Source of the DNA: Candidatus Omnitrophota bacterium
GTDB taxonomy: Bacteria > Omnitrophota > Gorgyraeia > JABMQH01
Reading direction: 5' to 3'
Length of the DNA stretch: 40,052 bases
Assembly: GCA_037143495.1 (NCBI GenBank)
Contig: JBAWYO010000001.1
Coordinates: 1 to 40,052, forward strand
Shown piece after piece: positions 3,702-25,416 of the stretch (position 1 is its first letter; each line of letters starts with the position of its first letter). A model generated the notes under the pieces. The model was not told the origin of the DNA. It ran no database searches and worked only from the letters and a program-made list of their open reading frames with translations. The position numbers and the translations under genes are program-made.

Positions 3702-4127
3702 ATGGATGCGGTATTAAGAAGTGAAGCGCTCGCGTTCGCGCGCAGCGGGAATATCTCGGTCCTCGCGACCGTGTCAAAAACGAAGACCGCGACTGCGCGG
3801 GTGATGCAGGTCGTTAAGGTCGACGATGACTTTACCGTCTGGTACAGCTCCTACGGCGCTTCGGAAAAGCTCAAAGAGCTCAAGACCGATCCAAAGGCGT
3901 GCATCATCATGAACAATTGCGCGACCACCTCCGATATCCGTCTCTACGGCGCGATCGATATCCTGACGGATCAGGCGACCAAAGAGAAGCTCTGGCAGGA
4001 GGAGTGGACGCGGTACTATCCCAAGGGCAAGACCGATCCGAATTATGTCGTGCTTAAATTCACCGCTGATATCGTCGAGTATCGCAACATGGCCAAATAC
4101 GGGATGATGGCTACGAGGGTTAAATAG
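3702..4127 (+). CDS. pyridoxamine 5'-phosphate oxidase family protein (general stress protein 26-like)
   Basis: Pattern VLATV..ARVM..V..DDDFTVWYSS...SEKLKELKTDPKACII...IRLYG fits the PNPOx-like FMN-binding split barrel. AGGAGGG RBS before the ATG at 3702. The upstream TTG start in the ORF track lies inside the repeat. Confidence 0.75.
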   Translation: MDAVLRSEALAFARSGNISVLATVSKTKTATARVMQVVKVDDDFTVWYSSYGASEKLKELKTDPKACIIMNNCATTSDIRLYGAIDILTDQATKEKLWQEEWTRYYPKGKTDPNYVVLKFTADIVEYRNMAKYGMMATRVK

Positions 4128-4222
4128 CTGCTGGCGCCAAGAACTCTTCCTGGCGCAGAGGCCATATGAGTAACGATCAAACCGCGCCGCACACTCTTGT
4201 GGCGTATTCCGTGAGTTTGGAG

Positions 4223-4277
4223 GTTGGGTCCGTTTCCCACGGAATTGAGAAGTGGCATTTTTGGAAACGGACCCAAG
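4223..4277 (+). repeat. short copy of hairpin repeat family 2 (GGGTCCGTTTCC...GGAAACGGACCC)
   Basis: 12-bp perfect inverted arms. Shares the GAATTGAGAAGTGG core with 9091, 21623 and 23077. Lies between convergent genes. Confidence 0.8.
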
Positions 4278-4302
4278 ATTCCACTCGCATTAAAGCAAAA
4301 AG

Positions 4303-7300
4303 TTATATCTGCGATAATAAATAAAGCTCTGCCCTGCGCGCGAGAAACTTTACAGCTTTCAGTTTTTTGTTGGCATAATCAAATTCGGATATTGAATCCG
4401 GTTCGCCTGTTTGCGGGTTTTTGCTTTCGTGGTATACCTTGAGTATCCAGTCGTTTTCGCCTATTCTTGCGGGGACTACCACAACATTAATTCCGGGCTG
4501 TTTGCTGCCTGAGGCAAGAGCGAGTTTTTTGCTTAAAACCACACCAATGTAGATTAGCCCCCCAGATAAGGTAGTACTCTTAAACTCATTAAGTTTAACA
4601 TCTTTGCCGTCAAGTCTATCAAGTATTCGCTGTTTTCCAGGACCAGGGTAGGATTCTAATTTTTTCCCTTCATAATCAAACCTGCTATAACTGTCAGGTG
4701 CGTCTCTTGAGGGGTCTTTACCTTCCGGATATACCTTAAAAATCCATCCGTCAACTGGGTCTTGTTCGGGGACAATGGTGGCATTGACGTTTACTCGTTC
4801 GCTGCCTGAAGCAAGATAAACATCTCTACCTGCAAGCCTGCCAATGTAGATTGTTCCGTTTGCATTCGTTTTTGCTTCAAACGTTACGAGCCTAACATCC
4901 TTGTCTTCCAATCGGTCTAATATCCTCTGTCGTGCAGGTCCAGGGTAGGATTCTAATTTTTTCCCTTCATAGTCAAACCGGCTATAACTGTCGGGTTCAT
5001 CTTTTGATGGGTCTTTACCTTCCGGATATACCTTAAAGATCCATCCGTCAACAGGGTCTTGTTCGGGGACAACCAAGACATTAACGTTTGACTGCTCGCT
5101 ACCTGAGGCAAGGTCGACTGGTTTCACTGCAAGATTGCCAATATGGATTTGCCCTATTGAATTCGTTTTTGCTTCAAACGTTACGAGCCTAACATCCTTG
5201 TCTTCCAATCGGTCTAATATCCTCTGTCGTGCAGGTCCAGGGTAGGATTCTAATTTTTTCCCTTCATAGTCAAACCGGCTATAACTGTCGGGTTCATCTT
5301 TTGATGGGTCTTTACCTTCCGGATATACCTTAAAGATCCATCCGTCAACAGGGTCTTGTTCGGGGACAACCAAGACATTAACGTCAGGTTGTAAACTACC
5401 TGCGGCCATGGTAAGTTTTTTGCCTGCAATACTGCCAACATAGATTTGCCCCTGAGCTCCCGTTGTAGTCTTAAAAGCTGCGGGATAGGCAGTGATACCA
5501 TTAGCCTTTAGAGTAAGCAGCATCATAAATCTCAATTCACTCCATGGTAACTTTTCAAGCACGCTTCTAACGTTCATCCCAAGTTTATGTATTTCAGGGA
5601 GTGTGCTGTTTTCCATATCTATGAGTCTCATGACTATTGCTTGTCGGATGGCAGGATCGGCAATATCTTGCGCATTTTGGGCTATAAATCTATGTATCGT
5701 TTCGCAGGCCGCGTTTACATGGGCCATCGGTGTAATCCTGGGCGGGATTATCTTAAGCAATAAGGCATATCTACTGCGCAAATTCTGACGTATGCTTCCC
5801 GGCTCTGCATTCGCGTCCAGGCGCCCTGATATATAACTCCTCTCCTCCCGTTCAGGGAATAATTGAGCAAGGAGCCTGTTTCTGTTTGCGATGAGTTCTA
5901 TGGCGCCTATTAATTCCGTAGAAGACATGGAGGCCTGTAAGGTGGCATGTGATGTCTCGTTTTCCAAAACCTTTGCCGCCGCAAGACCGTTTGTGTTTTT
6001 AAGGGAGGTGTATAACGCGCTAAAGCGGGACACCTCTGTGGCCAGGAATTGTTTATTCGCCTTCCTGGAAAGAAGATCAAGTATAAAGCGGGCATTCCTC
6101 TCCGAGAGAAGCAGAAGCGCCGACGGCCTGCGCTCGAAAATCTCAAGCTGCTGATAAAATTCTGCAGACGGCCTTACCTTTGTCTGCTTCAATTCCTGCG
6201 GCCTGATGAGATCCCTGTCAAGGCCTCCCCAGTCCTCATGTAAGGCTATAACCGCCGCTATATGTTCGGGCCTTGGCTGTGCAAGAGGCTGGCCTGTATG
6301 CCCTTTCATTAAAGGAGGCACCCTCAATCCGAATCCAGGTACCATAAGTAGCTGTTTTTTTACATCTTCCCTTCTTTCAGGTTCGATGTCGTGCATCTTA
6401 CGCAGGATTATCACCCTGAACCGTTTCTTAATCATCTGTTCTATTTCGCCGATAACCTCGGGTTCGTAATTCTCGCGAAAGAGGCTCATTGCTGCCGGAT
6501 CAGGAGAGAATCCTGTTTGCGCATTCTCAACCAGCTCAAAGCCGGCCTCGTTGATATTGGTTAAAAAATCTGGGGTGACATCAACAGTCGCCGGAAGGGT
6601 AATAGCAAATTCAGCTTTTGGTTTAAGGACCCTGTTTGCTTCAAGAAGGGTAGCGACAAAATCTTCTTTTTTCAGATGATGGATACTGAATGAGGCCGAG
6701 ACAAGGCCAAAGGCCCCTTCATCGGGCAGGTCCTGCTGTAAGTCTGCCATCGAGGCACAGAAGCCGTTCTGGTTAACCGCGACATCTCTCATGTCCTGAC
6801 GCAGCTCTATGTCGGTGACAGGGGGCTGAGTTACGCCAGACTCCTGCAATGCCAGATATAGGGCGCTTGTGCCCGCGCCCAGGTCCAGCACCTTGTCAAT
6901 TGAGCCGTCTATAATAGCTGGCGCATACCTGTCGGCAAGCCAAAGGACTGAAAGCCAGTCAACGGTGATCTTTAGATATTTGGCAAATTGTTCAGGGTCA
7001 GTCCTGTTGCCTCCCCATTCCAGGCGCGATGATCTTAAAAACGTAAGAGGGGCAAGGCACCGCGACATATCACACATCTCGACATCAGTAAGGGTCTCTG
7101 CTTCTAAACGCTTTGCGAGTTCCGCGAGCCTTTTACATGATTTGCTGCTTTCAAGAAGGGTAATCCTTTTCTGCTCTATCTGTTCAACGCTTTGTCCGCG
7201 AATGCGTATCTGACTGAGCTTATGCGATAAGGTTTCGATCATGGGTATATCTTTGTCTCCGATATCTGTTTTTCGGGCAGTTAAAGCACTGAAGTGTGTA

Positions 7301-7809
7301 CTTTCATCAGCAGTTAAAGCGGGAGTAAGGTAGCCCTGGTAACGGATAAGAAGTCTTAGGCGTTCTCTCTGGTCGGAAAGCGTTTCTCTTTTCTGGCGCA
7401 GTAATTCTTCTTTGGCAGTTTCGCTTTCTATAAAGCCATGGGTCACCACATCGTCCTGACCTATGCGCATCTCATGCCCATTTTTTATATTTACAACAGT
7501 AAATACCCATTTGATCCTATGATTACCAAGACTGCAGGTTACACCATCCGGATCATAAGCACAAGAGACGCCACCTGTGTTGGTATGCTTTAACTCCCAC
7601 TCTGCGCGAGCCGCTCTATAATCCTGCTGCGGATCAGAGCATTCTCTTATAAATGTTGCCTCTGTCTTAACCTGTTCGCTAGATTCACGTTCAGCAAATG
7701 ATATTGCACGTAATGAATCGCGCGTAATCAACCCGCCCCATGCTCCATTTTGGGACACAAGGTTTAAAATTAAAATTGTACTTAAAAACCCGGCTATTTT
7801 TTTTCTCAT
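4303..7809 (-). CDS. large exported protein with class I SAM-dependent methyltransferase domain and four C-terminal 99-aa repeats
   Basis: 1168 aa with a signal-like N-terminus (MRKKIAGFLSTILILNLVSQNGAWG) and LRAIS-FAERE motif (nt 7713-7699). MTase motifs VLDLGAGTS, FGLVSASFSIHHL and LEANRVLKPKAEF lie at about nt 6520-6957. The repeats are unrecognised. Confidence 0.85.
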   Translation of the reverse strand: MRKKIAGFLSTILILNLVSQNGAWGGLITRDSLRAISFAERESSEQVKTEATFIRECSDPQQDYRAARAEWELKHTNTGGVSCAYDPDGVTCSLGNHRIKWVFTVVNIKNGHEMRIGQDDVVTHGFIESETAKEELLRQKRETLSDQRERLRLLIRYQGYLTPALTADESTHFSALTARKTDIGDKDIPMIETLSHKLSQIRIRGQSVEQIEQKRITLLESSKSCKRLAELAKRLEAETLTDVEMCDMSRCLAPLTFLRSSRLEWGGNRTDPEQFAKYLKITVDWLSVLWLADRYAPAIIDGSIDKVLDLGAGTSALYLALQESGVTQPPVTDIELRQDMRDVAVNQNGFCASMADLQQDLPDEGAFGLVSASFSIHHLKKEDFVATLLEANRVLKPKAEFAITLPATVDVTPDFLTNINEAGFELVENAQTGFSPDPAAMSLFRENYEPEVIGEIEQMIKKRFRVIILRKMHDIEPERREDVKKQLLMVPGFGLRVPPLMKGHTGQPLAQPRPEHIAAVIALHEDWGGLDRDLIRPQELKQTKVRPSAEFYQQLEIFERRPSALLLLSERNARFILDLLSRKANKQFLATEVSRFSALYTSLKNTNGLAAAKVLENETSHATLQASMSSTELIGAIELIANRNRLLAQLFPEREERSYISGRLDANAEPGSIRQNLRSRYALLLKIIPPRITPMAHVNAACETIHRFIAQNAQDIADPAIRQAIVMRLIDMENSTLPEIHKLGMNVRSVLEKLPWSELRFMMLLTLKANGITAYPAAFKTTTGAQGQIYVGSIAGKKLTMAAGSLQPDVNVLVVPEQDPVDGWIFKVYPEGKDPSKDEPDSYSRFDYEGKKLESYPGPARQRILDRLEDKDVRLVTFEAKTNSIGQIHIGNLAVKPVDLASGSEQSNVNVLVVPEQDPVDGWIFKVYPEGKDPSKDEPDSYSRFDYEGKKLESYPGPARQRILDRLEDKDVRLVTFEAKTNANGTIYIGRLAGRDVYLASGSERVNVNATIVPEQDPVDGWIFKVYPEGKDPSRDAPDSYSRFDYEGKKLESYPGPGKQRILDRLDGKDVKLNEFKSTTLSGGLIYIGVVLSKKLALASGSKQPGINVVVVPARIGENDWILKVYHESKNPQTGEPDSISEFDYANKKLKAVKFLARRAELYLLSQI
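4306..5493 (-). repeat. four in-frame tandem repeats of 297 nt (99 aa); two units share a 224-nt perfect identity (4864-5087 = 5161-5384)
   Basis: Read directly. Unit consensus: VPEQDPVDGWIFKVYPEGKDPSKDEPDSYSRFDYEGKKLESYPGP.RQRILDRL.DKDV. Confidence 0.9.
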
Positions 7810-8020
7810 ACTATATTAGAATCCTATCATCTCAAACTAAAGAATTTTAATATTATTTTTAATACAAATGAAAAAAAATCAGCCCAACTGGAATGTTTGG
7901 AATAGCCCTAATCAGCATAAATAGCCATATCGTTAATGAATCTCACTGGCCAAGATAAGTATATCCTGTGTTTCTTGATTTTACAAATAAATGATTGTAA
8001 TATTAGTCACAAGATTACAG

Positions 8021-8179: not shown

Positions 8180-8989
8180 TTAATCCGGCGGCGGCTGAGT
8201 AGTGACCGGGGCGGGCGCGTTTGTCAGGCCGCCCTGTGATGCCAGGAAGAGGCCTTTTAACGCCTGGTTCTGGGGATCATCTTCCCGGTGTCTTGCTTTC
8301 AATGATTTGTTTCCCGGTCCGAAGTAATACGTGACGCCCGTTAAGAAGCTGTGATAGTTGCTCTCCCCCCAACGCGCATCGGCGAAGAAGGCGACCCCCG
8401 GGAGCACCTTAAGGCCTGGCATGTATTCGACGTTAACCAGTCCGGCGGTATCCCTGCCCGAATAGGCGCAGCCCGTGCCGAGGGAGAGGTTGTCCATCGG
8501 GTACCAGTTCAATCCCAGCTGCGAGAAGAGGCCCCCTTTTATACTACGCCCGTTCTGATAGCCCGCGTCTGCCGAGAGCGAAACCGGCCCGAGGTATAAT
8601 TCCCCCGTGGCGCCGCCCCGGTAGGATTCATAGGAACCGATCTGCGTCTCCGATCCGATAATACCCAGCAGCCCCTGGTCGGGGTTGCGCCAGAAGAGGG
8701 TGCCGCCCATGCCCCACATCGCATCCGCGCTGTAATCCCCGCCGATACCGTCGAGGGCAACGCCGAAGCTGTGGCCTACGGGTATCGTCACCGAGCCGTC
8801 GCCGAACCAGGTCTTGTCAGCGCTCAGGTCGGCATAGCCGCCCGATACTTTAGCGTTGATGGCCGAAACGGCTGGTTTTGACTCCACAGCGCCGGCGCGC
8901 GCAGCCAGGATACCGATCGCGCATACTGCCAGAAAAAAGATACTCGTTGCCTTCAAACCAGATGCGACCGCACTTACCCGTGATTTCAT
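8180..8989 (-). CDS. putative outer-membrane beta-barrel protein
   Basis: I prefer the ATG at 8989 (AGGAGGGG RBS), giving signal peptide MKSRVSAVASGLKATSIFFLAVCAIGILAARA. Gly/aromatic-rich alternating pattern, ..LTGVTYYF followed by a Pro-rich tail. The longer ORF-track start runs through the repeat at 9091. Confidence 0.55.
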   Translation of the reverse strand: MKSRVSAVASGLKATSIFFLAVCAIGILAARAGAVESKPAVSAINAKVSGGYADLSADKTWFGDGSVTIPVGHSFGVALDGIGGDYSADAMWGMGGTLFWRNPDQGLLGIIGSETQIGSYESYRGGATGELYLGPVSLSADAGYQNGRSIKGGLFSQLGLNWYPMDNLSLGTGCAYSGRDTAGLVNVEYMPGLKVLPGVAFFADARWGESNYHSFLTGVTYYFGPGNKSLKARHREDDPQNQALKGLFLASQGGLTNAPAPVTTQPPPD

Positions 8990-9090
8990 GACCCCTCCTG
9001 TTTTCGAATAGCCAGATACTGCTTGAGAACCGATTAGTTTCATTATAGAGCGCGACCCTGGAAAGTCAATCGATATCTGGGTTTGAGGAC

Positions 9091-9177
9091 GTTGGGTCCG
9101 TTTCCCAAGGAGGCACGTCTCCAATATAACAATAAAAACCTGAATTGAGAAGTGGTACTTCGGGAAACGTACCCCGA
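9091..9177 (+). repeat. hairpin repeat family 2, long copy
   Basis: GTTGGGTCCGTTTCCCAAGGAGGCACGTCTCCAATATAACAATAAAAACCTGAATTGAGAAGTGGTACTTCGGGAAACGTACCCC. Outer stem plus inner GGAG..CTCC stem. Confidence 0.85.
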
Positions 9178-9266
9178 CATTCCTTAACGTGATATACCCA
9201 GGTACACTTGATTTCATTTTTTTATTCTTCTATACTACTGCGCAGCTAGAGAAAAGTCATGAGTGG

Positions 9267-9335
9267 CGCTGTAGAAGTCCTGCTCGGGGGCATCCTGAAT
9301 CGAGTAGGGTGCACCACTATAGGATGTCTGCGCAT
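9267..9335 (+). repeat. compact palindromic copy of repeat family 1 (L-arm + R-arm, no insert)
   Basis: GCGCTGTAGAAGTCCT..GGGGCATCCT-gaatcgagt-AGGGTGCACC..TAGGATGTCTGCGC. Ends 14 nt before the GH5 ATG. Confidence 0.8.
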
Positions 9336-9348
9336 AGAAGAGTGAGTT

Positions 9349-10581
9349 ATGGCATATAAAATAACATATCTGCATACGGAAGGAACGCGCATCGTTGATG
9401 AGCGCGGAAAGCGCATTGTCCTCAAAGGCGTGAACCTTGGCGGTTGGCTCATGATGGAAGGATACATGTTCGGCGGCCGCAACATTTCTGAGCACGAGCT
9501 GCGCGCATCCGTCGGGAAAGAGCTGGGTAAAGAGGCGCTCACGGAGTTTACCAGAGCGTTTCGCGATACCTTCATCCGCGAGGATGATATCAAGATCATA
9601 AAAAGCTGGGGCGCTAATTGCATCAGGATACCGTTTAATTACCGCCTGATAGAATGTGAGGAGGGGGCGCGTGGCGTCAACAGGGAGGGGCTCTCGTATC
9701 TTGACCGTGCCGTGAAGTGGTGTGAGAAGCATAATATCTATTGTATCCTTGACATGCACGCTGCGCCGGGCGCGCAGAACTGCGCGTGGCACTCCGACTC
9801 CTACGGGAAGGCAGCGTTGTTCACCAGCGAAGCGAATAAGAGCCGCTACGTACGGTTGTGGCGTTTCTTAGCGGACCGTTACCAGGGATCCGCCGCTGTA
9901 GCCGGATATGATGTGCTGAATGAGCCCGTCGTCGGGCTCCGGGAAGAGGGAGAATTAAAGGAACTTTATGGCAGAGTCGTACAAGCGATACGTAGTGCCG
10001 ACAAAAAACATATCATATTTCTTGAGGGCAACATCCTTGCCCAGCGGATCAATTTTCTGGGCAAACCCGCCGACCACAATACGGTGTACAGCATGCATGC
10101 GTACCCGTCGCTCGATTTTACCCACAATTTCGAAATAGGATTACAATATCCGGGTACGGCGCATGGTATCCGATGGGATCGCGATAGCCTCGAACGTCTC
10201 GCTGCGACGTTTACATCTTTCATGAACAAACACCAGGTGCCGCTCTACGTGGGTGAGTTTGGTGTGAATGCCCGTGGCGGCCATGCCGGAGAAGTGCGGT
10301 GGGTGGAGGATATCATCAGCATCTTCACTGAGAATCATTTGAGCTGGACGTACTGGACGTACAAGACGATCGCGAATTACGCGTTCCCCGATGGTATATA
10401 CAGGTATCTTGCCAATCCCGCGTGGGTAAACAGGCAGGGGCCGGTATCGGGATGCGAGACCTTTGCCGGCTTGTGGCCAACGGCAAAGAGCAAGATGACA
10501 CGCTCGTGGCGGACGGAGAATTTTGTCCGCAATGATACGATATACGCTGTATTGAGAAAGTACTTCTTGCGGGTGTTGTAG
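9349..10581 (+). CDS. glycoside hydrolase family 5 (cellulase-like)
   Basis: GVNLGGWLMMEGYM, IRIPFNY, LDMHAAPGAQN, DVLNEP (acid/base Glu) and YVGEFG (nucleophile Glu) are GH5 hallmarks. No signal peptide seen. Confidence 0.85.
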   Translation: MAYKITYLHTEGTRIVDERGKRIVLKGVNLGGWLMMEGYMFGGRNISEHELRASVGKELGKEALTEFTRAFRDTFIREDDIKIIKSWGANCIRIPFNYRLIECEEGARGVNREGLSYLDRAVKWCEKHNIYCILDMHAAPGAQNCAWHSDSYGKAALFTSEANKSRYVRLWRFLADRYQGSAAVAGYDVLNEPVVGLREEGELKELYGRVVQAIRSADKKHIIFLEGNILAQRINFLGKPADHNTVYSMHAYPSLDFTHNFEIGLQYPGTAHGIRWDRDSLERLAATFTSFMNKHQVPLYVGEFGVNARGGHAGEVRWVEDIISIFTENHLSWTYWTYKTIANYAFPDGIYRYLANPAWVNRQGPVSGCETFAGLWPTAKSKMTRSWRTENFVRNDTIYAVLRKYFLRVL

Positions 10582-10640
10582 ACGTCCTACTCGGGGACAC
10601 CCTGAATAGAATAGGGTGTACCATAATAGGACGTCTACAT
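10573..10640 (+). repeat. compact palindromic copy of repeat family 1
   Basis: 13-bp perfect outer stem TGTAGACGTCCTA/TAGGACGTCTACA, inner stem GGGACACCCT/AGGGTGTACC, loop gaatagaat. The GH5 stop codon TAG (10579-10581) lies inside the L-arm. Confidence 0.9.
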
Positions 10641-10780
10641 ATACCAATAATATAGTTAGGTTATAAAAAAATTAGTTTTATTTTTTTGAAATGGATCGTA
10701 TATATGGTATACTTCTGCTTAGCGGGGAGTACTATTTTTTTGTGATCTATATAAAGATATTATAAAAAAATCAGCATACC

Positions 10781-12262
10781 ATGCGGAAACGATCTATCCT
10801 CCAACTGTGTACGATAGTACTCATGACCGCCCTCTGTTGCGCGGCGAATGGTGGGTCTATAGCCCATGGTCAATGCCCATCGACCGTCCTGCGGCCGGTC
10901 GCTCATGATCAACGGGAGGAGGCCCTTGAGATAGAGTCGATAGAATGGAATCCGTACTTCCCGTTAAGCGAAGAGCTTAAAAAAAAGATCATAGCTGTTA
11001 TCACCTGGCAGCTGCGGCCTGATTTTTCGCACAGCCGTTCAGGATATCTCCGGTTGCCGGAGGTGCTGGCTGTCGCGGTCGAAACAGCGGCGGGGCGCAA
11101 AACATTCGAGATACCACTTTTGAAACTTAAGAATATCGGTGATTTCCACGATGCCAGTAACCCTACAATGCCAGGCGCCGACGTGCCCGGATATCTGCAG
11201 CACGAGGTATTCCCCGAGGTCCATCCTGAGATCGACGCCGAGTGCTATCTGCATCCGGTGATGGTCCCGCCCATTCCGCGCGGCAGCGACCGCTACCGGT
11301 TCAATCTTCGTGAATACGCGCACACCGGTGAGGCACTCTTTCGCGGTGCGGATGTTGGCATCCCGTTCGCGGTGATCAAATACAAGGGGCGCGCTTTTCG
11401 CGGCGACCAGATCGGCGCGCTCGTGCTGGGCTGTTTCGAAGAGCAGGACAGGCGTTTTGCGCATCTGTTCAATGGCGCTGTGCTGGAGCTGGACCACATT
11501 CAACAGCCGGTATTGACCCTCGGCGAGTATGCCCGGTCGGTGGTCCCGCACCCGGATGATATGGGCAGTATATTGTCGTTCATGAGAGAAGGGATCGGCG
11601 CCTGGGGGGACGCGACGCGCGATCTGACCAATATAGGCGTCTTGCACGCTTCCACGCACCCGTTCAATGTTTCCTATGTCAAAGGACGAATGTACTATCA
11701 TGATTTTATTGAGACAAAGTGGAATCGCGATTTTACCCCGGAACAAGCGTTCCTCTATCAGCTGACCTGGCCGATCACGCACGCGATCTGCGGATTGGAG
11801 CTCTTGCTGCTGCAGACCGATCTGGGGCCGCCGCTGATCATGATGTACCACAATGCGGGAGAAAATCCATACAAGGATTGGCTGCGCCGATATTTTCGGG
11901 ATGCTGATGTGCGGACATTGCGGGTCATCGATCACGTAGCGGATGAATTGTTCGATAAGGCGGTTGATGCGCTGATGAAGTACGGCCAGACGGGGATATC
12001 ATTTGAGCAATATGCCCAGGAACGGGAGATGACGTATATGATCGCGTCCGTGGGGCTCTTCCCGGCGCTTGAGTCAATACAACAGCATCTGGGGTTGCGC
12101 GCGCCATACTCACAGGAAGAATACATACGGCGATTTGCGCTTTATAAACAGGAATCACTCGAGCTTGCCAACAGGTGGAGGGGTGAGCATGGACTTCCGC
12201 CGCTCGTTACGCAAACGGTTGCCGATTTCTATCGTCAGAACGTGTTCGACGATGATGTGTGA
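10781..12262 (+). CDS. hypothetical exported protein (LRPVA-HDQREE motif)
   Basis: 493 aa with signal-like MRKRSILQLCTIVLMTALCCAANG. LRPVA at nt 10889-10903. Possible degenerate kinase-like motif at nt 11642-11713. The antisense ORF 11039..11935 is judged spurious. Confidence 0.7.
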   Translation: MRKRSILQLCTIVLMTALCCAANGGSIAHGQCPSTVLRPVAHDQREEALEIESIEWNPYFPLSEELKKKIIAVITWQLRPDFSHSRSGYLRLPEVLAVAVETAAGRKTFEIPLLKLKNIGDFHDASNPTMPGADVPGYLQHEVFPEVHPEIDAECYLHPVMVPPIPRGSDRYRFNLREYAHTGEALFRGADVGIPFAVIKYKGRAFRGDQIGALVLGCFEEQDRRFAHLFNGAVLELDHIQQPVLTLGEYARSVVPHPDDMGSILSFMREGIGAWGDATRDLTNIGVLHASTHPFNVSYVKGRMYYHDFIETKWNRDFTPEQAFLYQLTWPITHAICGLELLLLQTDLGPPLIMMYHNAGENPYKDWLRRYFRDADVRTLRVIDHVADELFDKAVDALMKYGQTGISFEQYAQEREMTYMIASVGLFPALESIQQHLGLRAPYSQEEYIRRFALYKQESLELANRWRGEHGLPPLVTQTVADFYRQNVFDDDV

Positions 12263-12264
12263 TG

Positions 12265-12294
12265 CAGGTGTACCCTACGGACGTCTATGTATTT
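12265..12294 (+). repeat. solo R-arm of repeat family 1
   Basis: CAGGTGTACCCTACGGACGTCTATGTATTT, 14 nt upstream of the ATG at 12308. Confidence 0.7.
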
Positions 12295-12307
12295 GGGCTA
12301 ATGCGAT

Positions 12308-15124
12308 ATGATTAAAAAGAAAATAATTCATATTTTTGTACTGTGGGCGCTCGCGCTCTCGTTCTTATTTTTCGGCAACGAAGAGCTATCGTCGCGACCG
12401 ATAGCGGTCGCACAGGTCTGCTGCGCGCTCAGACCGGTCGCCAATAGCGAAGCGGCGCCTGCGCTCAGTCCTGATATCCTGACTCTTCCCGAGAGGATCA
12501 TCCGGGACGGGGTTCTTGCTCAGGACGCGAAGAGGCTTTTCGGCAGCGTCGATAGATTTGTTGCTGTTCTTCGTGATCCGACCGCGATCGATGAACGCAG
12601 GGAAGCTGGTGCGTCATTTTTGGCGGAGGCCGGCGTTCTCGCGGCTCGCACGCTGCAAAGCGTTCCGATCTGCGGGGACATACCTGTAGGTGATCATGGC
12701 GATTCGCGCGTGTTGTGCGAGCGGTTTTTGGAGGCGGTAGCGCTGCGAACCGGGACCCTGGAGGCGCGGCTGGCTGACCGGAGACTCTACCGGACTGATC
12801 GCGCGGACAATCTGGGAGCGTTGGCCGTTGAGTTCGGCGTTGAGCCGCTTCTCGTTCATTATCTTAATATGAGGTATAGCGGCATGACGATATTGGGAGA
12901 TAACGCACAGCTTCTTTTTACCCGTGAGGGCAAATACCGCAAGGTCGAAGGTTTTCTTGCCGACAAACTCTTTTTTTCAACGCGCAAAGTTTTCCTGGGA
13001 GAGTCGCCTTATGTATATAGCGCCCGCACCGGAAAGATCTACTATTACGGCAAGCCTTTGGATTTTGGGTACCGGGCGCACGCGTTCCAGGATGAATCGG
13101 ACAATTGGTATTTCAAGGAGGTTTGGGGACCGAATGGTCCGACGGGCGAAGTCGACGTGCGGACACTTGTCGTTAATTTCAGGAATTTTTGCAACAAGCC
13201 CTGCGCTTTTTGCTGGCGCGCATACCGGGAGCAGACGGAAGCCGTCGGTTTGCAGCAGATGGCCTTACGAAACCTCTCGGTCGATGACGGACTGGCCCAG
13301 ATAGCCGCCGCGCACGGCGTCGAAGTCTTTGGGCTCATCGAACGGATATCGGTCATGGAAGCGGGATTCCCCTCCGAGGAGCTGGAGGTCGATTTCCTGG
13401 TGGAGCTGATCGAAAAACTCAAAGCGCGGGGGTTTAAAGGGAAGATCACCCCGTTTACGTCATTTCTTCGCTCGCCCGCGTCATTTGACCGGTTGATCGC
13501 CAGCGGCTATTGCATGGACCAGTGCCTCTTCCCGATGGAATGTTTTACAAGGCGTAATGAGGTGCTCGGTGAGCGCAAACGCTGCACGCTTGAGGAAGCA
13601 TTTCAGCGTATGGAAGTGTCCCTGCGGTATTATCAGGACGTAAAAGCGTTCCTGCTTATCGGCCTGGCTGATGACCTGGAAGCTATCAGGCGCCACCTGC
13701 CCGAGATGCGCGCCCGCGGTCTGGGTGTGCAATTGAGCATGTATTCGGCGGTCCTGCCCCGGCAGAAGGATCTTTATTCGCGCGAACTTGTTGCCGATGA
13801 GAAGAATAACGGTCACATCCGCTTTTTGCTGCGCGCCGCGCGGATCGCTTTTGCCTACGGCGTGTCGTGTCCCGAAGGGTCCGTCGTTAACGGCATCTGG
13901 CCCGCCGGCGCGAACTCGCTCGTGCATCCCGACAGTATCCTTCTTATGCCCTCTGAGGCTGATGAACGTGATCCCCAAGAGGCGCTTGCACAGCGGAGAG
14001 AAACTCTGGCTAAAGTCGTCGCGACGGGAGGATTTGCGCCGATCGCCGGTTTTAATGCGGTCAGCTGGTGGAATGAGAGCAACCCTGACGGCTGGGAAGG
14101 GCGCCCCCTGACCGTCGCGCGCGCGGCCGGTGATCCCGTCGTCCAGAGCAATGTGATAGCCTGGACCGCAGCGCGCTCTAACGCCGCGGTGGTTTCGACG
14201 ATGATGGACCTGACGTATCAGCAGGAAGCCATTTTACTGGCGATGGGCAGACCCGCGCCGCTTCTTAACTATGACAATGGCGCTCCACAGATCCGAGGGG
14301 TGTTGGCGGGGTGGATGGAGATCGATTGGGATCAACAGCCGGTACCGGATGTGAGGACCTCCGGAAGGATACCGGTATATGCTGAAACGGTCAGAGCGCT
14401 GAAAAAAAGGTTCGGCTCCCCAAAGCCAGTCGCAGCATTCGTCCAGGGGCCTTATTCTGTCGCGACCGGGTTGCTTGGCGAAGACGCGCTCGTAGCGCCT
14501 CTTGAGCAACCCGAAAAATTTGCTGCTTTTCTCAGGTATCTCAACAGAGTCAATACCGCGATCATCGAGTATTTTGCCGAAAGCGGCGCCGATATAATTG
14601 CGTTCCCGGATCCGGTACCGACGGCGAATCTAAGCCCCAAAATGTTCGTTACCTATAGTGTTGATCAGATGAAAGCGATCGCGGCAGAAACACATAAACG
14701 GGGCCTGCTCTTTTTGTGGCATCCGTGCAGGCCGATAAACCCTGGGCTCGGAGAAAGGATCCTGCCTGATATACTTGGCGGCGCGACCGCGGCTGAGGTG
14801 GATATTTTGAGCCTTGATGCGGCGTTTAAGATGAGCGACGTTTATGACAGGTTGCGGCAGACAGGTAATAACGCTACCGTGCTCTTTGGAAATATTGATA
14901 CGGAACACTTGATGCCGGAAGGTCCCGCAGGGGCCATTCAAGACGCCGTAACGAGTCTTGATGCCGGTATGGGATCGCGTCGCTTCCTTTTGGGGACGAG
15001 CTGCGATTGTGCGAATGTTCCCCCCGCTCATTTCCAGGCTCTCTGTAGCGCTGCGCAGCAACATAGCGCCACAGCGGGGCAGCGCTTGACGGATCAGCCG
15101 GTGGAGATGCTGACCAATGTTTAA
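12308..15124 (+). CDS. fusion protein: signal-like N-terminus + LRPVA motif + radical SAM domain + uroporphyrinogen-decarboxylase (URO-D/MtaA-like) domain
   Basis: 938 aa. CNKPCAFC (CX3CX2C) at nt 13190-13213. The C-terminal ~300 aa (about nt 14105-15052) resemble the URO-D/methylcobamide methyltransferase fold (FVQGPYSVATGLLG, AESGADIIAFPDP, LLGTSCD). Confidence 0.7.
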   Translation: MIKKKIIHIFVLWALALSFLFFGNEELSSRPIAVAQVCCALRPVANSEAAPALSPDILTLPERIIRDGVLAQDAKRLFGSVDRFVAVLRDPTAIDERREAGASFLAEAGVLAARTLQSVPICGDIPVGDHGDSRVLCERFLEAVALRTGTLEARLADRRLYRTDRADNLGALAVEFGVEPLLVHYLNMRYSGMTILGDNAQLLFTREGKYRKVEGFLADKLFFSTRKVFLGESPYVYSARTGKIYYYGKPLDFGYRAHAFQDESDNWYFKEVWGPNGPTGEVDVRTLVVNFRNFCNKPCAFCWRAYREQTEAVGLQQMALRNLSVDDGLAQIAAAHGVEVFGLIERISVMEAGFPSEELEVDFLVELIEKLKARGFKGKITPFTSFLRSPASFDRLIASGYCMDQCLFPMECFTRRNEVLGERKRCTLEEAFQRMEVSLRYYQDVKAFLLIGLADDLEAIRRHLPEMRARGLGVQLSMYSAVLPRQKDLYSRELVADEKNNGHIRFLLRAARIAFAYGVSCPEGSVVNGIWPAGANSLVHPDSILLMPSEADERDPQEALAQRRETLAKVVATGGFAPIAGFNAVSWWNESNPDGWEGRPLTVARAAGDPVVQSNVIAWTAARSNAAVVSTMMDLTYQQEAILLAMGRPAPLLNYDNGAPQIRGVLAGWMEIDWDQQPVPDVRTSGRIPVYAETVRALKKRFGSPKPVAAFVQGPYSVATGLLGEDALVAPLEQPEKFAAFLRYLNRVNTAIIEYFAESGADIIAFPDPVPTANLSPKMFVTYSVDQMKAIAAETHKRGLLFLWHPCRPINPGLGERILPDILGGATAAEVDILSLDAAFKMSDVYDRLRQTGNNATVLFGNIDTEHLMPEGPAGAIQDAVTSLDAGMGSRRFLLGTSCDCANVPPAHFQALCSAAQQHSATAGQRLTDQPVEMLTNV

Positions 15125-15148
15125 CGGGGAGCGCAAGGCGTTGTAAAA

Positions 15149-15238
15149 GGCGTTGTAGACGTCCTAGTCAGGTATGCCCTGTAAATACAAATAGTTCAAA
15201 ATAGTGAAAAGAAATTACCTCCTTGAATCTGTCAAAGG
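15149..15238 (+). repeat. repeat family 1, L-arm + spacer (AAATACAAATAGTTCAAAATAGTGAAAAGAAATTACCTCC) with short hairpin
   Basis: Homologous to 2784-2860 and 8055-8127. Lies between convergent CDSs. Confidence 0.8.
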
Positions 15239-15239
15239 C

Positions 15240-16880
15240 TCATATGGCAATGTTGGATAGATGTGCGCTGGTGGGGGATACAGATGCGGAGGCGGGCGCC
15301 GGTACCGGGACAAGCATATTCGAAAGGCGGGCGGCCATGGTCCCGGGCGCTGTTTTTGAATGCAGGAGGTATCCCCGCGCACGTCCGGCATTGCCGACCT
15401 CAAGAGCCATGCCGGTCACATCGTCTTGTATGGCCAAAGACCGTGTCAGATCATGGGTCGAACTTATTGCAGGTGAATACGAAGAGGCATATGACGCATA
15501 AAAAACAAGCATGTTGCCGACCAGATCCATGCACCGGTCTTGATGCGAGTTTATCCTTAAAAATGCGCGCTGGAACCTCTCCGCGACCCTGAATTGCTCA
15601 CCCGTGGCCAGAGAGAAAGCAAATATCCCGCCCTCGCCGCTCCTGGTGTGTATCACCAGAAAATCGTCATTCATGATAAAGTATTCGAACTGATACTGTG
15701 CCAGATTATCGAATAAGGCCTGCGGCAGGTTGGCCGGTTCGCCCGTATGTTTGTCGAATATGGACAAAGACGGTCCGGCCTCACCATCTCCCAGCGCCCG
15801 GTTCACCGCCAGATATTTTGTGGGTGTCAGGGTGATGCTGCGCGCGACCACCTGTCGATTATCCCGGCGAACGACTTTAGCCGTGGCGGGACCAGCCAAG
15901 GCAACACGGGCCAGAGTATTACCGTCGAACTTAAAGAGTTGTGCCTCCCATTTATTATCCTCGATCGGACTGCGTGACGTTGGTAGGGGGCGCGCCGCCA
16001 CGGCGATCATGCCGTCATTCGTGACGATGATCGGGTCCGCCAGGTCCTCCATATTGACCCTGACGACCTGCCGGGCGCTCGTGCCCGTCACCAGATCAAC
16101 GACGCAGAGGTCAACATCAAATCCTTCCTCTTGCTCCACACTTTGACTGAAAAAGGCCAGGGTGTGACCGGCCAGCACGGCGCTCAACGGTTGCCGCGTC
16201 AGATAGGTTCCGACGACCTTATCTTCCCCGGTGTCCGTATCGACGATCTGCAGCCCCCTGGCGCTCTCCGCCGCACCCTCCAGATACCGGATCAGGTATC
16301 GTTCGTGCAAAAGGGTGTCTGACGGCTCTGTGACCGCCAGGAGCTTAAATTGTCCGTCGGCGGTCGTTGAGCGCAGATCAAATTCGATCATGCCGTCCGA
16401 CCGGTCGCTTGCGCTCCGGTCGGTGACCAGCAGTCTGCCGGCATTGAACTGGATAGGAGGAAACTCCGGCATATACGTCTGCGCGCCCGTTCGGTCAAGA
16501 ACGCTGCCGTCGGGCATCGTTATGCGGGAAAGGTCTATTCGGCCGATCAGCCCTCCGTCGGCAACCGTATAACGCCTGAAGATAAAATCCCCGCTTCGTA
16601 CCACCAGATACGTGCCGTCATACGTAAAAGCCGTAATGGACGGATCGCTTGCCAGGATATCCAATACCCGCTGCGGATAGGTGCCGCTCGATACTTGAGC
16701 GGATCCCCCGCTCAGGCCAAGAAGGGCGGTGGTGCGGGAACTTTCGTCAAGCGGGAGAGGGCGCAACGCCGGATGATCGGGCAAAGCGCAGGCGTGCGAT
16801 GCGCCGCTTATCATGCAGGCGGCCATAACGGATATCAGGGTAGACATTGTTATCGCATATATTCGGCTATGTGTGAGCAT
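15240..16880 (-). CDS. hypothetical exported protein (LRPLP-LDESS motif)
   Basis: ORF-track frame 15240..16979. The ATG at 16880 gives signal-like MLTHSRIYAITMSTLISVMAACMISGASHAC. LRPLP at nt 16766-16752. No family recognised. Confidence 0.6.
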   Translation of the reverse strand: MLTHSRIYAITMSTLISVMAACMISGASHACALPDHPALRPLPLDESSRTTALLGLSGGSAQVSSGTYPQRVLDILASDPSITAFTYDGTYLVVRSGDFIFRRYTVADGGLIGRIDLSRITMPDGSVLDRTGAQTYMPEFPPIQFNAGRLLVTDRSASDRSDGMIEFDLRSTTADGQFKLLAVTEPSDTLLHERYLIRYLEGAAESARGLQIVDTDTGEDKVVGTYLTRQPLSAVLAGHTLAFFSQSVEQEEGFDVDLCVVDLVTGTSARQVVRVNMEDLADPIIVTNDGMIAVAARPLPTSRSPIEDNKWEAQLFKFDGNTLARVALAGPATAKVVRRDNRQVVARSITLTPTKYLAVNRALGDGEAGPSLSIFDKHTGEPANLPQALFDNLAQYQFEYFIMNDDFLVIHTRSGEGGIFAFSLATGEQFRVAERFQRAFLRINSHQDRCMDLVGNMLVFYASYASSYSPAISSTHDLTRSLAIQDDVTGMALEVGNAGRARGYLLHSKTAPGTMAARLSNMLVPVPAPASASVSPTSAHLSNIAI

Positions 16881-21732: not shown

Positions 21733-23031
21733 ATGAACAGACATAGATTTTTTTCAGTACTTTGTTCGTTCACTCTTTTGATGGGGCCCATGAGCGCATC
21801 ATCTGTCCGGGCAAACGAACCGCGGTCTTCGGCGGAGATGGTCAATACACAGACCGCCATTGACACAAATTTTGCGACAGCGTTAACGCTTTACAAATTG
21901 GATACCGGGACCTATCCCACGACGGGGCAGGGGTTGCGTGCGTTATTGGTCAAGCCCGAGAGCGATCCTATACCCATCGGCTGGAATGGCCCTTATTTGT
22001 CCGGGGTCTATCCCGACCCTTGGGGACATCCGTATGGTTACCGATTCCCCGCGAAGCTTAATACGGGCGCTCCGGCCATGTATGATCTATGGTCCTGTGG
22101 TCCCGATGGCGTGGTAAGCGCGGATGATATAACAAATGGCGAGTGGGTGCAACGACAGCTCAATTATAAGACGCAAACCAAGCTTGACGTAAATACCCAA
22201 GAAAAAATACAGACGTTATGTACCAATATCCCGAAAACATTTCCCTATTTTCACGTCTCGCAAGTAACGGTTACCGGCGATTGGACATTTGTGATGAGAG
22301 CCGAAGGGGCAGATGCCCCGTTCCCGCTGGAACTGACTGCGGGATTGGAAAAAAGTCAGGTCTTCGAAAAGGTTAATTTTAAAACATCAGTTTTCAACGA
22401 AACCGACCCCCGGCACGCATATGCTCTTATCATAACCGGAGAGATAACCGAGAAAGGGTTATCATTTGATGCTGATGCGGTCCTGGCGGTCATAGATTCC
22501 TCGCTTAAGGAAAGCGCTATTTTCAAAAATAGACAAAAGCGCCTTCAGGATGCGCGAACGCAGGAGGATCGGCGCCAGTATCGCAGCGCTATCCAGGGAT
22601 ATGAAGGATTTCTCCGCGTTCTTGATCCGGGATCAGAGGAATTTAAAGAAACGCAGACAAAGATCCGGCAACTCAAACAAAAAGAGCAGGAAGAGGCAGA
22701 GGCGCAGAAGTGGATCAAGGCTCCTCAGGGGGGTTCCGCGCTCGACAATGCGGGTATGGCGAAAGCGCTTCAAGCACAGATCAGCCTTGATATCCGCGAT
22801 ATGCCCCTCGTTGATACGCTGAAGTTCCTGAGCATAAAAGGACGCATTCCCATGGAGTCCCTGATGCCGGTAAACGGCAGCGTGACGATGTTGGTGAACA
22901 AAACGCCCATCAAGGATGTGCTCAGCGCGATCTTACATGATAATCATCTTGCTTTTCATATCGAGAAGAGCGTTGTTTATATCATGACCGAGAATATGTT
23001 CAAGGAGCGCTATGGAAAAGATTTTCAATAA
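21733..23031 (+). CDS. exported protein with type II secretion GspG-like pseudopilin globular domain and C-terminal secretin-N0/STN-like domain
   Basis: YPTTGQGLRALLVKP...WNGPYL...DPWGHPYGYRFP...YDLWSCGPDG is the T2SS-G signature (about nt 21844-22137). The N-terminus is a Sec-like signal rather than a prepilin G-FTLIE. The last ~75 aa (about nt 22780-23007) show an STN-like pattern. ATG at 21733 chosen because the TTG at 21691 lies in the repeat. Confidence 0.7.
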   Translation: MNRHRFFSVLCSFTLLMGPMSASSVRANEPRSSAEMVNTQTAIDTNFATALTLYKLDTGTYPTTGQGLRALLVKPESDPIPIGWNGPYLSGVYPDPWGHPYGYRFPAKLNTGAPAMYDLWSCGPDGVVSADDITNGEWVQRQLNYKTQTKLDVNTQEKIQTLCTNIPKTFPYFHVSQVTVTGDWTFVMRAEGADAPFPLELTAGLEKSQVFEKVNFKTSVFNETDPRHAYALIITGEITEKGLSFDADAVLAVIDSSLKESAIFKNRQKRLQDARTQEDRRQYRSAIQGYEGFLRVLDPGSEEFKETQTKIRQLKQKEQEEAEAQKWIKAPQGGSALDNAGMAKALQAQISLDIRDMPLVDTLKFLSIKGRIPMESLMPVNGSVTMLVNKTPIKDVLSAILHDNHLAFHIEKSVVYIMTENMFKERYGKDFQ

Positions 23032-23076
23032 TCCTAAGCCGGGTCTTTTGGCCGGTTAGGTCAAATCGATATAGGC

Positions 23077-23160
23077 GTTGGGCGCGTTTCCCAAGGGGGC
23101 AGGTCTCCAGTATAACAAAAAAACCCGAATTGAGACATGGTACTTTGGGAAACGGCCTCG
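23077..23160 (+). repeat. hairpin repeat family 2, long copy
   Basis: GTTGGGCGCGTTTCCCAAGGGGGCAGGTCTCCAGTATAACAAAAAAACCCGAATTGAGACATGGTACTTTGGGAAACGGCC. Confidence 0.85.
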
Positions 23161-23204
23161 GCAAAAACAGGGGGGCATATGAATTGGAGATCGGTTGCGG
23201 GTGT

Positions 23205-23531
23205 ATGCCAAAGACGCCGTGGATGAGGGGCGCTCTCATCGGGGCGGGCACGGTCACGGCGTTAGCCGTACTTTTTCTTATCTTGAATCTTTTTGGCGTT
23301 CCCTTCGGCCAGGTCCCTCCACTGGGGCTTTTGGTCGTCGCTCTGTCGTTAATTACAATGCCGGTATCTATCATCGGGAGGGTTCTGCACCTTCCCCTTG
23401 AGAACGGAGGCGCCGCGTTCATGATCGCTGACCTCAATGCGTTGGGATGCGCAGCTGTCGTACTGTTCTGGGCGCTCGTAGGAGCGCTCATCGCTCTGGT
23501 CGCGCGGAACAATAGTCCATCTTGGAAATAA
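23205..23531 (+). CDS. small hypothetical membrane protein
   Basis: About 108 aa with three hydrophobic segments. Start uncertain (no clear RBS). Confidence 0.45.
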   Translation: MPKTPWMRGALIGAGTVTALAVLFLILNLFGVPFGQVPPLGLLVVALSLITMPVSIIGRVLHLPLENGGAAFMIADLNALGCAAVVLFWALVGALIALVARNNSPSWK

Positions 23532-23588
23532 ATTAGTGTCTAGTGCGGCAATGGGCACAAAAATAGTACGAGAGGAAGCGCAAAAGAT

Positions 23589-24548
23589 ATGCTGGGTCTT
23601 AAGGAACTAAAAGAGACCATAAAGATCACCAAGACGACAGTTGAATGCCCCGTTAAGGGGTGCGCGCAGACGGTCGCCAGGCAGAGCAGGAAAGACCGTT
23701 TGAGTGACGCAAGGTTTCAATGCCCCAGAGACAAAATTAGTATCTCGCCGTCGACCTTTGCATATCAAAACGAATTCGATAATATGCTGTGGAAAGACGA
23801 TAGTGATAGAGAGCTGTTCGAGAGCATAAAAAAGGTCAAGCGGGAAAGCAGGATCGACCAGGATAACAGCGAGGACGCCGTCACCTGGAACGTATTCAGG
23901 TTCCTGGAAAAGAATAAATTGATCGGGGAGATCATCGGCGGCATGCTCGGCATCGATATGAGGGAGCCCGAAATAATATACTGGTCGTATAGCCAAAGCG
24001 GGAAAAATAGTTGGCCGGAATTGAACAGGGCGCGGGAGGAATTCGGAGAAGTTCTCAAGAGGAGTTCGGAGCCGGATATTATCATAGATTCAAGCGACGC
24101 CCTGCTATTCATCGAAGCAAAACTCACCGCACAAAATAAGACCGAGCCGCATGACAAGACAAATTCCAAGAAATATGAGATCGGCGGCGACCGGTGGTTC
24201 GATAGAGTGGTGCGGTCAGATTATAAGACCGTAGCGATCACTGATAAGAAATATGAGCTTTTGCGGTTTTGGTTACTTGGCACCTGGATGGCAAACCGGC
24301 TTGGAAAGGCCTTCTACCTTGTAAATCTTGTGCTGGATGACCGCGAAAAGAATATCGAGGAACTGTTCAGGCAGCATATACATGAAAATGATATGAACAA
24401 ATTCGTCCGGATCGCCTGGGAAGGGGTGTACCAGCAGATCTTGAGCGATCATTTATCCTGCCCGGACAAGAATGGTATGGTTAACTATTTTAGAAATAAA
24501 TGTATCGGATATAAAGCCGGAGTATTACAAAAGGCGTTTATGACGTAA
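23589..24548 (+). CDS. PD-(D/E)xK nuclease-like protein with N-terminal Cys-rich (zinc-ribbon-like) segment
   Basis: SEDAVTWNVF ... EPDIIIDSSDALLFIEAKL gives an E...D...ExK arrangement. ECPVKGC...FQCPRD lies near the N-terminus. More AT-rich than flanks by eye. Confidence 0.55.
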   Translation: MLGLKELKETIKITKTTVECPVKGCAQTVARQSRKDRLSDARFQCPRDKISISPSTFAYQNEFDNMLWKDDSDRELFESIKKVKRESRIDQDNSEDAVTWNVFRFLEKNKLIGEIIGGMLGIDMREPEIIYWSYSQSGKNSWPELNRAREEFGEVLKRSSEPDIIIDSSDALLFIEAKLTAQNKTEPHDKTNSKKYEIGGDRWFDRVVRSDYKTVAITDKKYELLRFWLLGTWMANRLGKAFYLVNLVLDDREKNIEELFRQHIHENDMNKFVRIAWEGVYQQILSDHLSCPDKNGMVNYFRNKCIGYKAGVLQKAFMT

Positions 24549-24559
24549 TGACCGCGCAT

Positions 24560-24760: not shown

Positions 24761-24784
24761 AACTCCCCTGGGAACCATGGAGAG

Positions 24785-25312: not shown

Positions 25313-25320
25313 GAATATCG

Positions 25321-25388
25321 GTGTAGTGTCCTACCCGGGTACACCCTGGATATAGAGTAGGGTGTACCCAAATAGGACGTCTGTACAT
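25321..25388 (+). repeat. compact palindromic copy of repeat family 1
   Basis: Inner stem GGTACACCCT/AGGGTGTACC is perfect and the outer arms are imperfect. Starts 9 nt after the stop at 25312. Confidence 0.85.
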
Positions 25389-25416
25389 CTATGAGTAAGC
25401 GGGAGAGAAGCTATTG

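Follow-up and report, generated by a model that had tools for sequence, protein, structure and literature searches.

A position-specific peptide tag behind the predicted signal peptides of unrelated Omnitrophota proteins

Why should seven proteins with no other likeness to one another carry the same short peptide soon after their predicted signal peptides? The question is raised by a contig of a metagenome-assembled genome labelled 'Candidatus Omnitrophota bacterium', the whole of which, 40,052 nt long, was analysed here and is called the window (locus tags from WCG78_00005, proteins from MEI8175236). Omnitrophota are widespread, uncultured, ultra-small bacteria whose way of life is believed to involve dependence on, or predation of, other microbes. 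An earlier note on this DNA had proposed the pentapeptide LRP[LVI][APS], followed by acidic residues, as a candidate export, processing or host-targeting signal. The same sequence, with the same contig ends, is present in GCA_964655305.1 and in several ENA, JGI and Logan assemblies; its GC content varies between about 46 and 57%.

Here we show that the motif is a real, position-specific tag that occurs behind signal peptides in this window beyond chance expectation, and we present evidence that supports selection on the peptide rather than a DNA repeat or a duplicated module. We tentatively propose that it is a lineage-specific short linear tag, read past Sec export, that would route or process the soluble secretome.

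A motif confined to the region behind predicted signal peptides

Re-translation of the window returned each of the seven peptides quoted in the earlier note at its coordinates and in its frame, as well as a degenerate SRPIA near the core of one carrier and a weaker SVRANEP in a further protein (Table 1; proteins are named by the first coordinate of their gene). In the six-frame translation, which comprises about 80,000 codons, LRP[LVI][APS] matched exactly six times, and all six matches were reported carrier sites. Relaxing the pattern to LR[PA] added the LRAIS of protein 4303, an LRALA within a multi-pass membrane protein (29679–31175) and two matches in non-coding frames.

The statistics were based on 31 credible genes in the window, encoding 11,166 amino acids (aa) and including 10 signal-peptide proteins, with residues 21–60 as the tested zone. 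From amino-acid composition, 0.18 matches to LRP[LVI][APS] would be expected overall and 0.0064 in the tested zone of the 10 signal-peptide proteins. Six were observed in that zone and none elsewhere (binomial P = 2e-9). When LR[PA] was permitted, the signal-peptide zone held seven matches versus one elsewhere (P = 6e-10).

Signal peptides were called by a crude hydropathy rule of our own combined with manual inspection of the −3 and −1 positions. By this heuristic, every carrier begins with an n-region that contains K/R, continues with 10 or more uncharged, hydrophobic residues and then offers a plausible (−3,−1) site for signal peptidase. It thus has the general features of a Sec signal peptide (a basic n-region, an h-region no shorter than 10 aa and small residues at −3/−1). 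The distance from the predicted signal-peptidase site to the start of the motif is 5 to about 25 residues, and the spacing of the motif from the hydrophobic core is 5–30 aa. Each of the contig's seven soluble signal-peptide proteins has the motif, and neither of the two β-barrel outer-membrane proteins (OMPs) does; the OMPs have a signal peptide and lack the motif, as the earlier note had said.

The carriers share little else. All-versus-all BLASTP gave a best E value of about 0.5, the few weak alignments being the motif region itself, in keeping with the earlier statement that the proteins have no other mutual similarity. The first 210 nt of the carrier genes (n = 7) have only chance-level 9–13-mers in common and contain no DNA repeat, and the codons of the five-residue core vary among copies, as had also been noted. 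Given unrelated carriers and differing codons, convergence or selection, not duplication, accounts for the shared peptide, and a DNA repeat or duplicated leader cassette is ruled out by the absence of DNA and protein similarity between the N termini.

Control sequences rarely show the core in this position. A DNA pattern for ALRPLAxxE matched 116 times in viral contigs; only four matches (3%) passed a crude post-signal-peptide test, and at most one of these four resembles a real signal peptide. In 1.5 Mb of control loci, with pre-selected matches excluded, none of about 88 signal-peptide-like open reading frames (ORFs) had the tag. The explanation that the motif arose by chance, by compositional bias or as an N-terminal module spread by duplication or recombination has in its favour that the core is only five residues long, for which reason the earlier note had warned of chance matches, and that a possible variant at another locus (TLAP in L132, described below) lies behind clearly paralogous signal peptides. 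Given the P value in the window, the dissimilar N termini, the differing codons, the behaviour of the controls and the recurrence of the tag in a second genome, this explanation has next to no probability left and is effectively refuted for the window.

Table 1. Carriers of the tag in the window, a doubtful carrier and two outer-membrane proteins that lack it
Product	Position (nt)	Strand	N-terminal features (nt)
Carrier, 319 aa, without known domain	20–979	+	Signal peptide and linker 20–103; LRPLA 104–118; MLRPLAALEPK 101–133
Carrier, 595 aa, without known domain	996–2783	+	Signal peptide and 24-aa linker 996–1148; LRPLS 1149–1163; NLRPLSFDERE 1146–1178
Carrier, 1168 aa, class I SAM methyltransferase	4303–7809	−	Signal peptide and linker 7809–7714; LRAIS 7713–7699; SLRAISFAERE 7716–7684
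Orphan carrier, 493 aa	10781–12262	+	Signal peptide and linker 10781–10888; LRPVA 10889–10903; VLRPVAHDQRE 10886–10918
Carrier, 938 aa, radical-SAM and URO-D/MtaA-like	12308–15124	+	Signal peptide and linker 12308–12427; SRPIA (degenerate) 12392–12406; LRPVA 12428–12442
Carrier, 546 aa, without known domain	15240–16880	−	Signal peptide and linker 16880–16767; LRPLP 16766–16752
Carrier, 310 aa, without known domain	35280–36212	+	Signal peptide and linker 35280–35366; LRPLA 35367–35381; ALRPLATGEKE 35364–35396
Doubtful weak carrier, 432 aa	21733–23031	+	Signal-peptide-like N terminus; SVRANEP 21802–21822
β-barrel-like OMP candidate (negative)	8180–8989	−	Signal peptide …ILAARAGA|VESK, no motif
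OMP_b-brl (Pfam) outer-membrane protein (negative)	36376–37242	+	Signal peptide, no motif

Carrier proteins and lineage range

Five of the carriers have no relatives in Pfam, NCBIfam or the PDB. A homologue search for protein 10781 found none, PDB sequence searches with proteins 996 and 15240 were uninformative, and scans of viral contigs for relatives of the carriers returned nothing. The start of protein 996 differs between annotations: the product of the Prokaryotic Genome Annotation Pipeline (PGAP), MEI8175237 (P0075, WCG78_00010), is 464 aa long and begins 131 codons past the ATG at 996, the start that the ENA and JGI gene callers chose to give 595 aa. This ATG lies 17 nt past the preceding stop, with the purine-rich GAGAGAAAG upstream. 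The PGAP start for WCG78_00010 loses both the signal peptide and the tag.

The remaining two carriers contain cofactor-needing domains of cytoplasmic type behind their signal peptides, which agrees with the earlier note. Protein 4303 has an S-adenosylmethionine (SAM) methyltransferase domain (Methyltransf_11, E = 4e-8), which was also the only part matched in a PDB sequence search; its C terminus (4303–5300, minus strand) consists of four tandem units of about 75 aa (…VVPEQDPVDGWIFKVYPEGKDPSKDEPDSYSRFDYEGKKLESYPGP…) without a Pfam match. Protein 12308 comprises a helical N-domain, a radical-SAM domain and a URO-D/MtaA-like domain (E = 2e-25). The CX3CX2C motif is invariant in its family (C295, C299 and C302), its homologues carry PF04055, and the best Foldseek matches to its structural model were lipoyl synthase LipA, biotin synthase BioB, the PFL-activating enzyme PFL-AE and MoaA. 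It therefore holds a genuine radical-SAM domain.

An exhaustive profile search of 5.8 and 1.8 billion proteins recovered only four full-length homologues of protein 12308, so that, with five family members in all, there are few orthologues to compare. The closest of those with a named source, P0002, is encoded by Candidatus Omnitrophota isolate Zod_Metabat.364 on contig JAFGKX010000032 (locus L009), a 14-kb contig with a GC content of 41% versus about 52% in the window. From residue 67 on, P0002 and protein 12308 are 51% identical; the N-terminal ~70 residues cannot be aligned, yet ALRP is retained (MLKFLKIIITIAIAINNSQALALNQPLNSHA-LRPLT-ATLAEE). The long ORFs of L009 contain only two matches to [LVIM]R[PA]xx, both of them past signal peptides, and the second belongs to an unrelated protein of 891 aa (…FLSDSYA-LRPVS-EVLRK). 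Apart from the 12308/P0002 pair, no gene is common to the window and L009. A third protein of L009 (1940–2257, plus strand; 105 aa) has a signal peptide with SFAQT-NRPIQ directly past the cleavage site, a degenerate xRP[IL]x copy like the SRPIA of protein 12308.

The other homologues differ. P0004 has no counterpart of the tag. P0005, from locus L132 (Logan ERR7850082), has DTLAPSV at the aligned motif place, and two giant neighbours have STLAPTS and MTLAVSS. These three proteins of 2132, 1285 and 3281 aa are encoded consecutively (1988–22107), contain PLD, radical-SAM, HD and histidine-phosphatase domains, and all have, behind paralogous signal peptides (…VCLFL…), either TLAP[ST] or TLAVS. 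Because the signal peptides are paralogous, the shared TLAP may reflect common descent, and we treat TLAP[ST] as a weak lead to a lineage variant of the tag. P0003 is encoded at 10001–11701 of locus L130 (JGI Ga0366834_1000532), a 21.7-kb Omnitrophota-like contig with a GC content of 37%. It has SYARRVREG shortly past its signal peptide, and the only other soluble signal-peptide protein of L130, a GH130 protein at 8617–9849, has SSLRRVKSG; [AL]RRV[RK]xG is an equally weak lead to a lineage variant, from two proteins. Conservation of motif position among orthologues, which the earlier note had set as a check, thus holds for P0002 and fails for P0003 and P0004, with only a doubtful LAP variant in P0005. 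From the state of the 12308 homologues and their loci, the tag is conserved in at least two divergent Omnitrophota lineages and is lineage-restricted. A scan of GTDB genomes returned one locus only.

Motif anatomy and comparison with known signals

Ten examples, aligned on the core, give the consensus A(6/10)-L(10)-R(10)-P(9)-[LVI]-[AS](8)-x-x-E(7)-[RK](5)-E(5), as in the extended tags NLRPLSFDERE, SLRAISFAERE, VLRPVAHDQREE and ALRPLATGEKE; downstream of this the examples have nothing more in common. In an AlphaFold2 model of protein 12308, built on the five-member family alignment, residues 2–23 form a hydrophobic helix, residues 20–53 have a predicted local distance difference test (pLDDT) score below 50, and confidently modelled structure begins with a first domain at about residue 55. 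The motif, at residues 41–45, falls in the low-pLDDT segment; the tag therefore behaves like a short linear motif, placed in a flexible linker close to where the mature protein begins. Judged from this model and from the comparison with P0002, it appears to lie in an unstructured region and to have been kept while its flanks diverged, which are the hallmarks of such motifs.

No curated model or paper that we found covers the tag, which is apparently undescribed. The 10 N termini had no match at E ≤ 10 among the signal models of NCBIfam and Pfam (twin-arginine translocation (Tat), prepilin, YSIRK, SipW-cognate and others), and full-text literature searches on the peptides LRPLA and LRPVA and on signal-peptide or sorting motifs of Omnitrophota brought up no description. 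To our knowledge, no post-signal-peptide linear sorting or processing motif has been known on bacterial non-lipoproteins, and the tag would be the first.

The earlier note had likened the tag to the Plasmodium export element (PEXEL) and to the oomycete RxLR-dEER signal. The analogy of layout stands; the defining residues of both are absent. PEXEL and its Toxoplasma equivalent (TEXEL, RRLxx) likewise lie 15–30 residues past a signal peptide of Sec type, on exported proteins that are otherwise unrelated, and R-x-[LVI] is found in all 10 tag examples, with R-x-L (as R-P-L) in 6. The pentamer R-x-L-x-[E/Q/D] is not reproduced, however: position 5 is E, Q or D in 1 of the 10, and the conserved Glu of the tag comes two residues later. 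The tag also has Leu before the Arg and, in 9 of 10, Pro after it. The eukaryotic signals act in the endoplasmic reticulum or Golgi, where an aspartic protease, plasmepsin V or ASP5, cuts them after the Leu; the window yielded no protease of this class. With RxLR-dEER the tag shares the layout of a signal peptide, a short spacer, a basic–hydrophobic core and an acidic E/R-rich tail (E-[RK]-E in the tag). Its core is L-R-P-[LVI]-[AS], with a second Arg in none of the 10 examples, and its tail (E at +7 in 7/10, [RK] at +8 in 5/10 and E at +9 in 5/10) is similar to dEER in flavour only; RxLR-dEER is, moreover, an oomycete signal and the tag a bacterial one.

Two features bear on a prey- or host-targeting role: some carriers are enzymes that depend on cofactors, and the phylum is reported to live in dependence on hosts. 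By analogy, the tag might be a bacterial counterpart of PEXEL or RxLR with which predatory or parasitic Omnitrophota target Sec-exported enzymes of cytoplasmic type, such as the radical-SAM, SAM methyltransferase and MtaA-like carriers, to prey or host, which we consider doubtful. Equally doubtful is the accompanying proposal that these carriers would undergo a second translocation into another cell and there acquire their cofactors and act, the reader of the tag being a periplasmic protease or a translocon.

Closer to home, the lipoprotein export signal (LES) of Bacteroidota and the Lol +2 rule also place an acidic-rich sorting determinant in the first mature residues and act past Sec. They concern lipoproteins only and are counted from the lipidated Cys+1, with the signal at residues +2 to +5, whereas the core of the tag is L-R-P and its spacing varies. 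Only protein 15240 has a lipobox-like sequence (VMAAC), with the motif 17 residues further on; the others have none. The nearest bacterial precedents for a secretion determinant at the mature N terminus are the N22 segment of curli CsgA and the two-partner secretion (TPS) domain, mature N-terminal segments that a secretion channel of the outer membrane recognises in the periplasm. Those segments are family-specific, 22 to about 250 aa long, found on homologous cargo and encoded next to their transporter gene; the tag is 5–11 aa long, sits on unrelated cargo and has no transporter gene nearby.

In another function, the tag would be a docking or retention epitope for a periplasmic or envelope partner, such as a peptidyl-prolyl isomerase (PPIase) or other chaperone, peptidoglycan, or an outer-membrane or S-layer protein; the carrier would be held or assembled in the envelope, with neither onward transport nor cleavage. 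TonB boxes and the curli N22 segment follow the same logic, and a short, proline-containing motif in a flexible linker near the mature N terminus suits such a role. A conserved Rotamase_2 PPIase is reported to adjoin the type II secretion locus of Omnitrophota (bioRxiv 10.1101/2023.11.21.568195). Against docking, it is not obvious what a radical-SAM enzyme and SAM methyltransferases would do in the periplasm or how they would be supplied with cofactors there, and no partner was identified. We regard this function as possible, with a minority chance of being correct.

Several bacterial systems use an extra N-terminal motif to pick a dedicated route, among them SipW-cognate signal peptides (TasA/camelysin), class III prepilins, YSIRK-G/S and Tat. 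Their motifs lie within the n-, h- or c-region, whereas the tag lies past the predicted cleavage site. The Tat motif (S/T-R-R-x-F-L-K in the n-region) is absent: the tag has a single Arg, past the hydrophobic core, and TIGR01409 gave no match at E ≤ 10. LPXTG, PEP-CTERM and GlyGly-CTERM proteins combine a motif, a hydrophobic helix and a basic cluster on unrelated surface proteins, an order that the tag mirrors at the N terminus. In those sortase and exosortase systems the signal is C-terminal, the motif abuts the helix and a cognate enzyme defines the system; the tag is N-terminal and variably spaced, and neither the window nor L009 nor L132 yielded a cognate sorting enzyme. A translation-arrest peptide of the SecM/RAPP type was rejected, as there is no RAPP or RAGP core and the Glu behind and the Ala ahead of the motif indicate peptide recognition. 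An N-out/C-in membrane anchor was rejected because the basic residues are on the N-terminal side.

A role at the level of Sec itself is also conceivable: the tag could tune the initiation of translocation or handling by signal peptidase, for example by a dedicated signal peptidase I paralogue, with no later sorting. Ala occupies position −1 in 6 of the 10 examples, and the motif abuts an AxA-type site in the 891-aa protein of L009 (SYA|LRPVS), in the metagenomic example L181 (PCA|LRPLS) and in protein 35280 (FNA|LRPLA). It is unusual to find Arg this close to the start of a mature Sec substrate, where it is normally disfavoured for export, and Sec substrates need a net non-positive early mature region. 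The invariant Arg of the tag is always followed by acidic residues which, by what is established for Sec substrates, would offset its charge and keep the local net charge non-positive. This compensation speaks for a role at Sec, and the presence of an invariant early Arg speaks against it. The motif also lies 14–30 residues past the hydrophobic core in proteins 996 and 12308 and in P0002 of L009, beyond the reach of signal peptidase I; the OMPs of the same contig are Sec substrates, yet have no tag; and the SipW-cognate, Tat, prepilin and YSIRK models of NCBIfam are unmatched. We consider a Sec-level role improbable, and the spacing and the OMPs together rule out a signal peptidase I site as the identity of the motif.

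How the tag may be read

The best explanation of the N-terminal sequences is that the tag belongs to the predicted unstructured first 1–30 mature residues of Sec-exported proteins that are not β-barrels. That it is a lineage-specific short linear tag, read past Sec export to route or process the soluble secretome, is the proposal we put forward, tentatively and at somewhat less than an even chance. It draws together the positional enrichment, peptide-level selection on unrelated cargo, the absence of the tag from OMPs, the linker context and the recurrence in a second lineage. In such a pathway, the signal peptide would take the unfolded carrier over the inner membrane and signal peptidase I would cut it, as the n-h-c architecture and the (−3,−1) sites suggest. 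In the periplasm, a factor dedicated to the LRP tag, now near the new N terminus, would read it; this factor might be a protease for processing or the adaptor of a translocon in the outer membrane. This reading would send the soluble secretome on to the cell surface, the medium or a prey or host cell, whereas β-barrel OMPs would pass untagged to the β-barrel assembly machinery (BAM).

The enzymes of cytoplasmic type among the carriers fit onward delivery better than residence in the periplasm. They could also be reconciled with signal-peptide-like N termini if the tag targeted them to an intracellular membrane-bounded compartment, of the kind found in the Planctomycetes–Verrucomicrobia–Chlamydiae (PVC) group or resembling a magnetosome, in which radical-SAM and SAM-dependent domains would be kept inside the cell. 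Omnitrophota are related to the PVC group and some are magnetotactic. Nothing in the window indicates a compartment, the carriers do not form a coherent pathway, and we know of no internal compartment in these ultra-small cells, so that we rate this explanation very low. For delivery out of the cell there is some published context: Omnitrophota have been reported as host-dependent or predatory nanobacteria (PMC10066038), and giant Omnitrophota proteins with signal peptides and such domains have been described (bioRxiv 10.1101/2023.11.21.568195; bioRxiv 10.64898/2026.06.07.730766).

Several points weigh against a tag that is read after Sec export. A dedicated peptidase or secretion apparatus that co-occurs with the tag, as the earlier note had suggested seeking, was not found in the window or L009, which contain no candidate protease, translocon or adaptor, and there is no evidence of carrier cleavage or of the carriers' final location. 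The variable spacing of 5–30 aa from the hydrophobic core argues against a reader embedded in the membrane. The signal peptides come from a home-made hydropathy rule rather than from SignalP or DeepTMHMM, and the sample amounts to about 10 examples from two, perhaps three, genomes, on a contig that may be an atypical island. Nor is the tag phylum-wide, since the homologues P0003 and P0004 are without it and none occurs on the 21.7 kb of L130. Finally, a composite DNA pattern (M[KR][KR], 22–32 codons, A[LF]RP[LV][AS]xxE) gave 75 matches in a metagenome collection, a number consistent with chance; 61 were out of frame and one, L181 (MKRACGKRVLSKIIFLILAAFAAPCA-LRPLS-AQE), is plausibly true. The same pattern matched three times in viral contigs, always out of frame. 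Because this pattern has low sensitivity, fitting none of the nine examples known at the time of the scan, the result shows only that the tag is not hugely abundant.

Some neighbouring genes of the window deserve separate record. The doubtful carrier 21733 has a cleavable-type signal peptide in place of a pilin-type hydrophobic N-terminal helix, then the globular domain of the type II secretion protein GspG (Pfam T2SSG, E = 7.5e-22) and, at its C terminus, a region like the N-domain of secretin/PilQ (TIGR02515, E = 5.5e-4); no gspD, gspE or gspF genes lie near it. At 9349–10581 (plus strand), amid genes for exported proteins, a GH5 cellulase-family protein (E = 9e-41) is encoded without a signal peptide. 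GC content is 0.46–0.50 at 22000–26000 and 4000–8000 versus 0.52–0.57 elsewhere in the window. The first of these patches includes a gene for a REase-ARP restriction-endonuclease-like protein (PF22558; 23589–24548), and an ORF6N/Rha-like regulator is encoded at 3066–3599; the lower-GC patches and these two genes may have been acquired horizontally.

If the tag is read as we propose, it would offer a direct computational handle on candidate effectors within the soluble secretome of these bacteria, and a bait for phylogenetic profiling of the machinery that reads it. It also gives a concrete prediction for N-terminomics.

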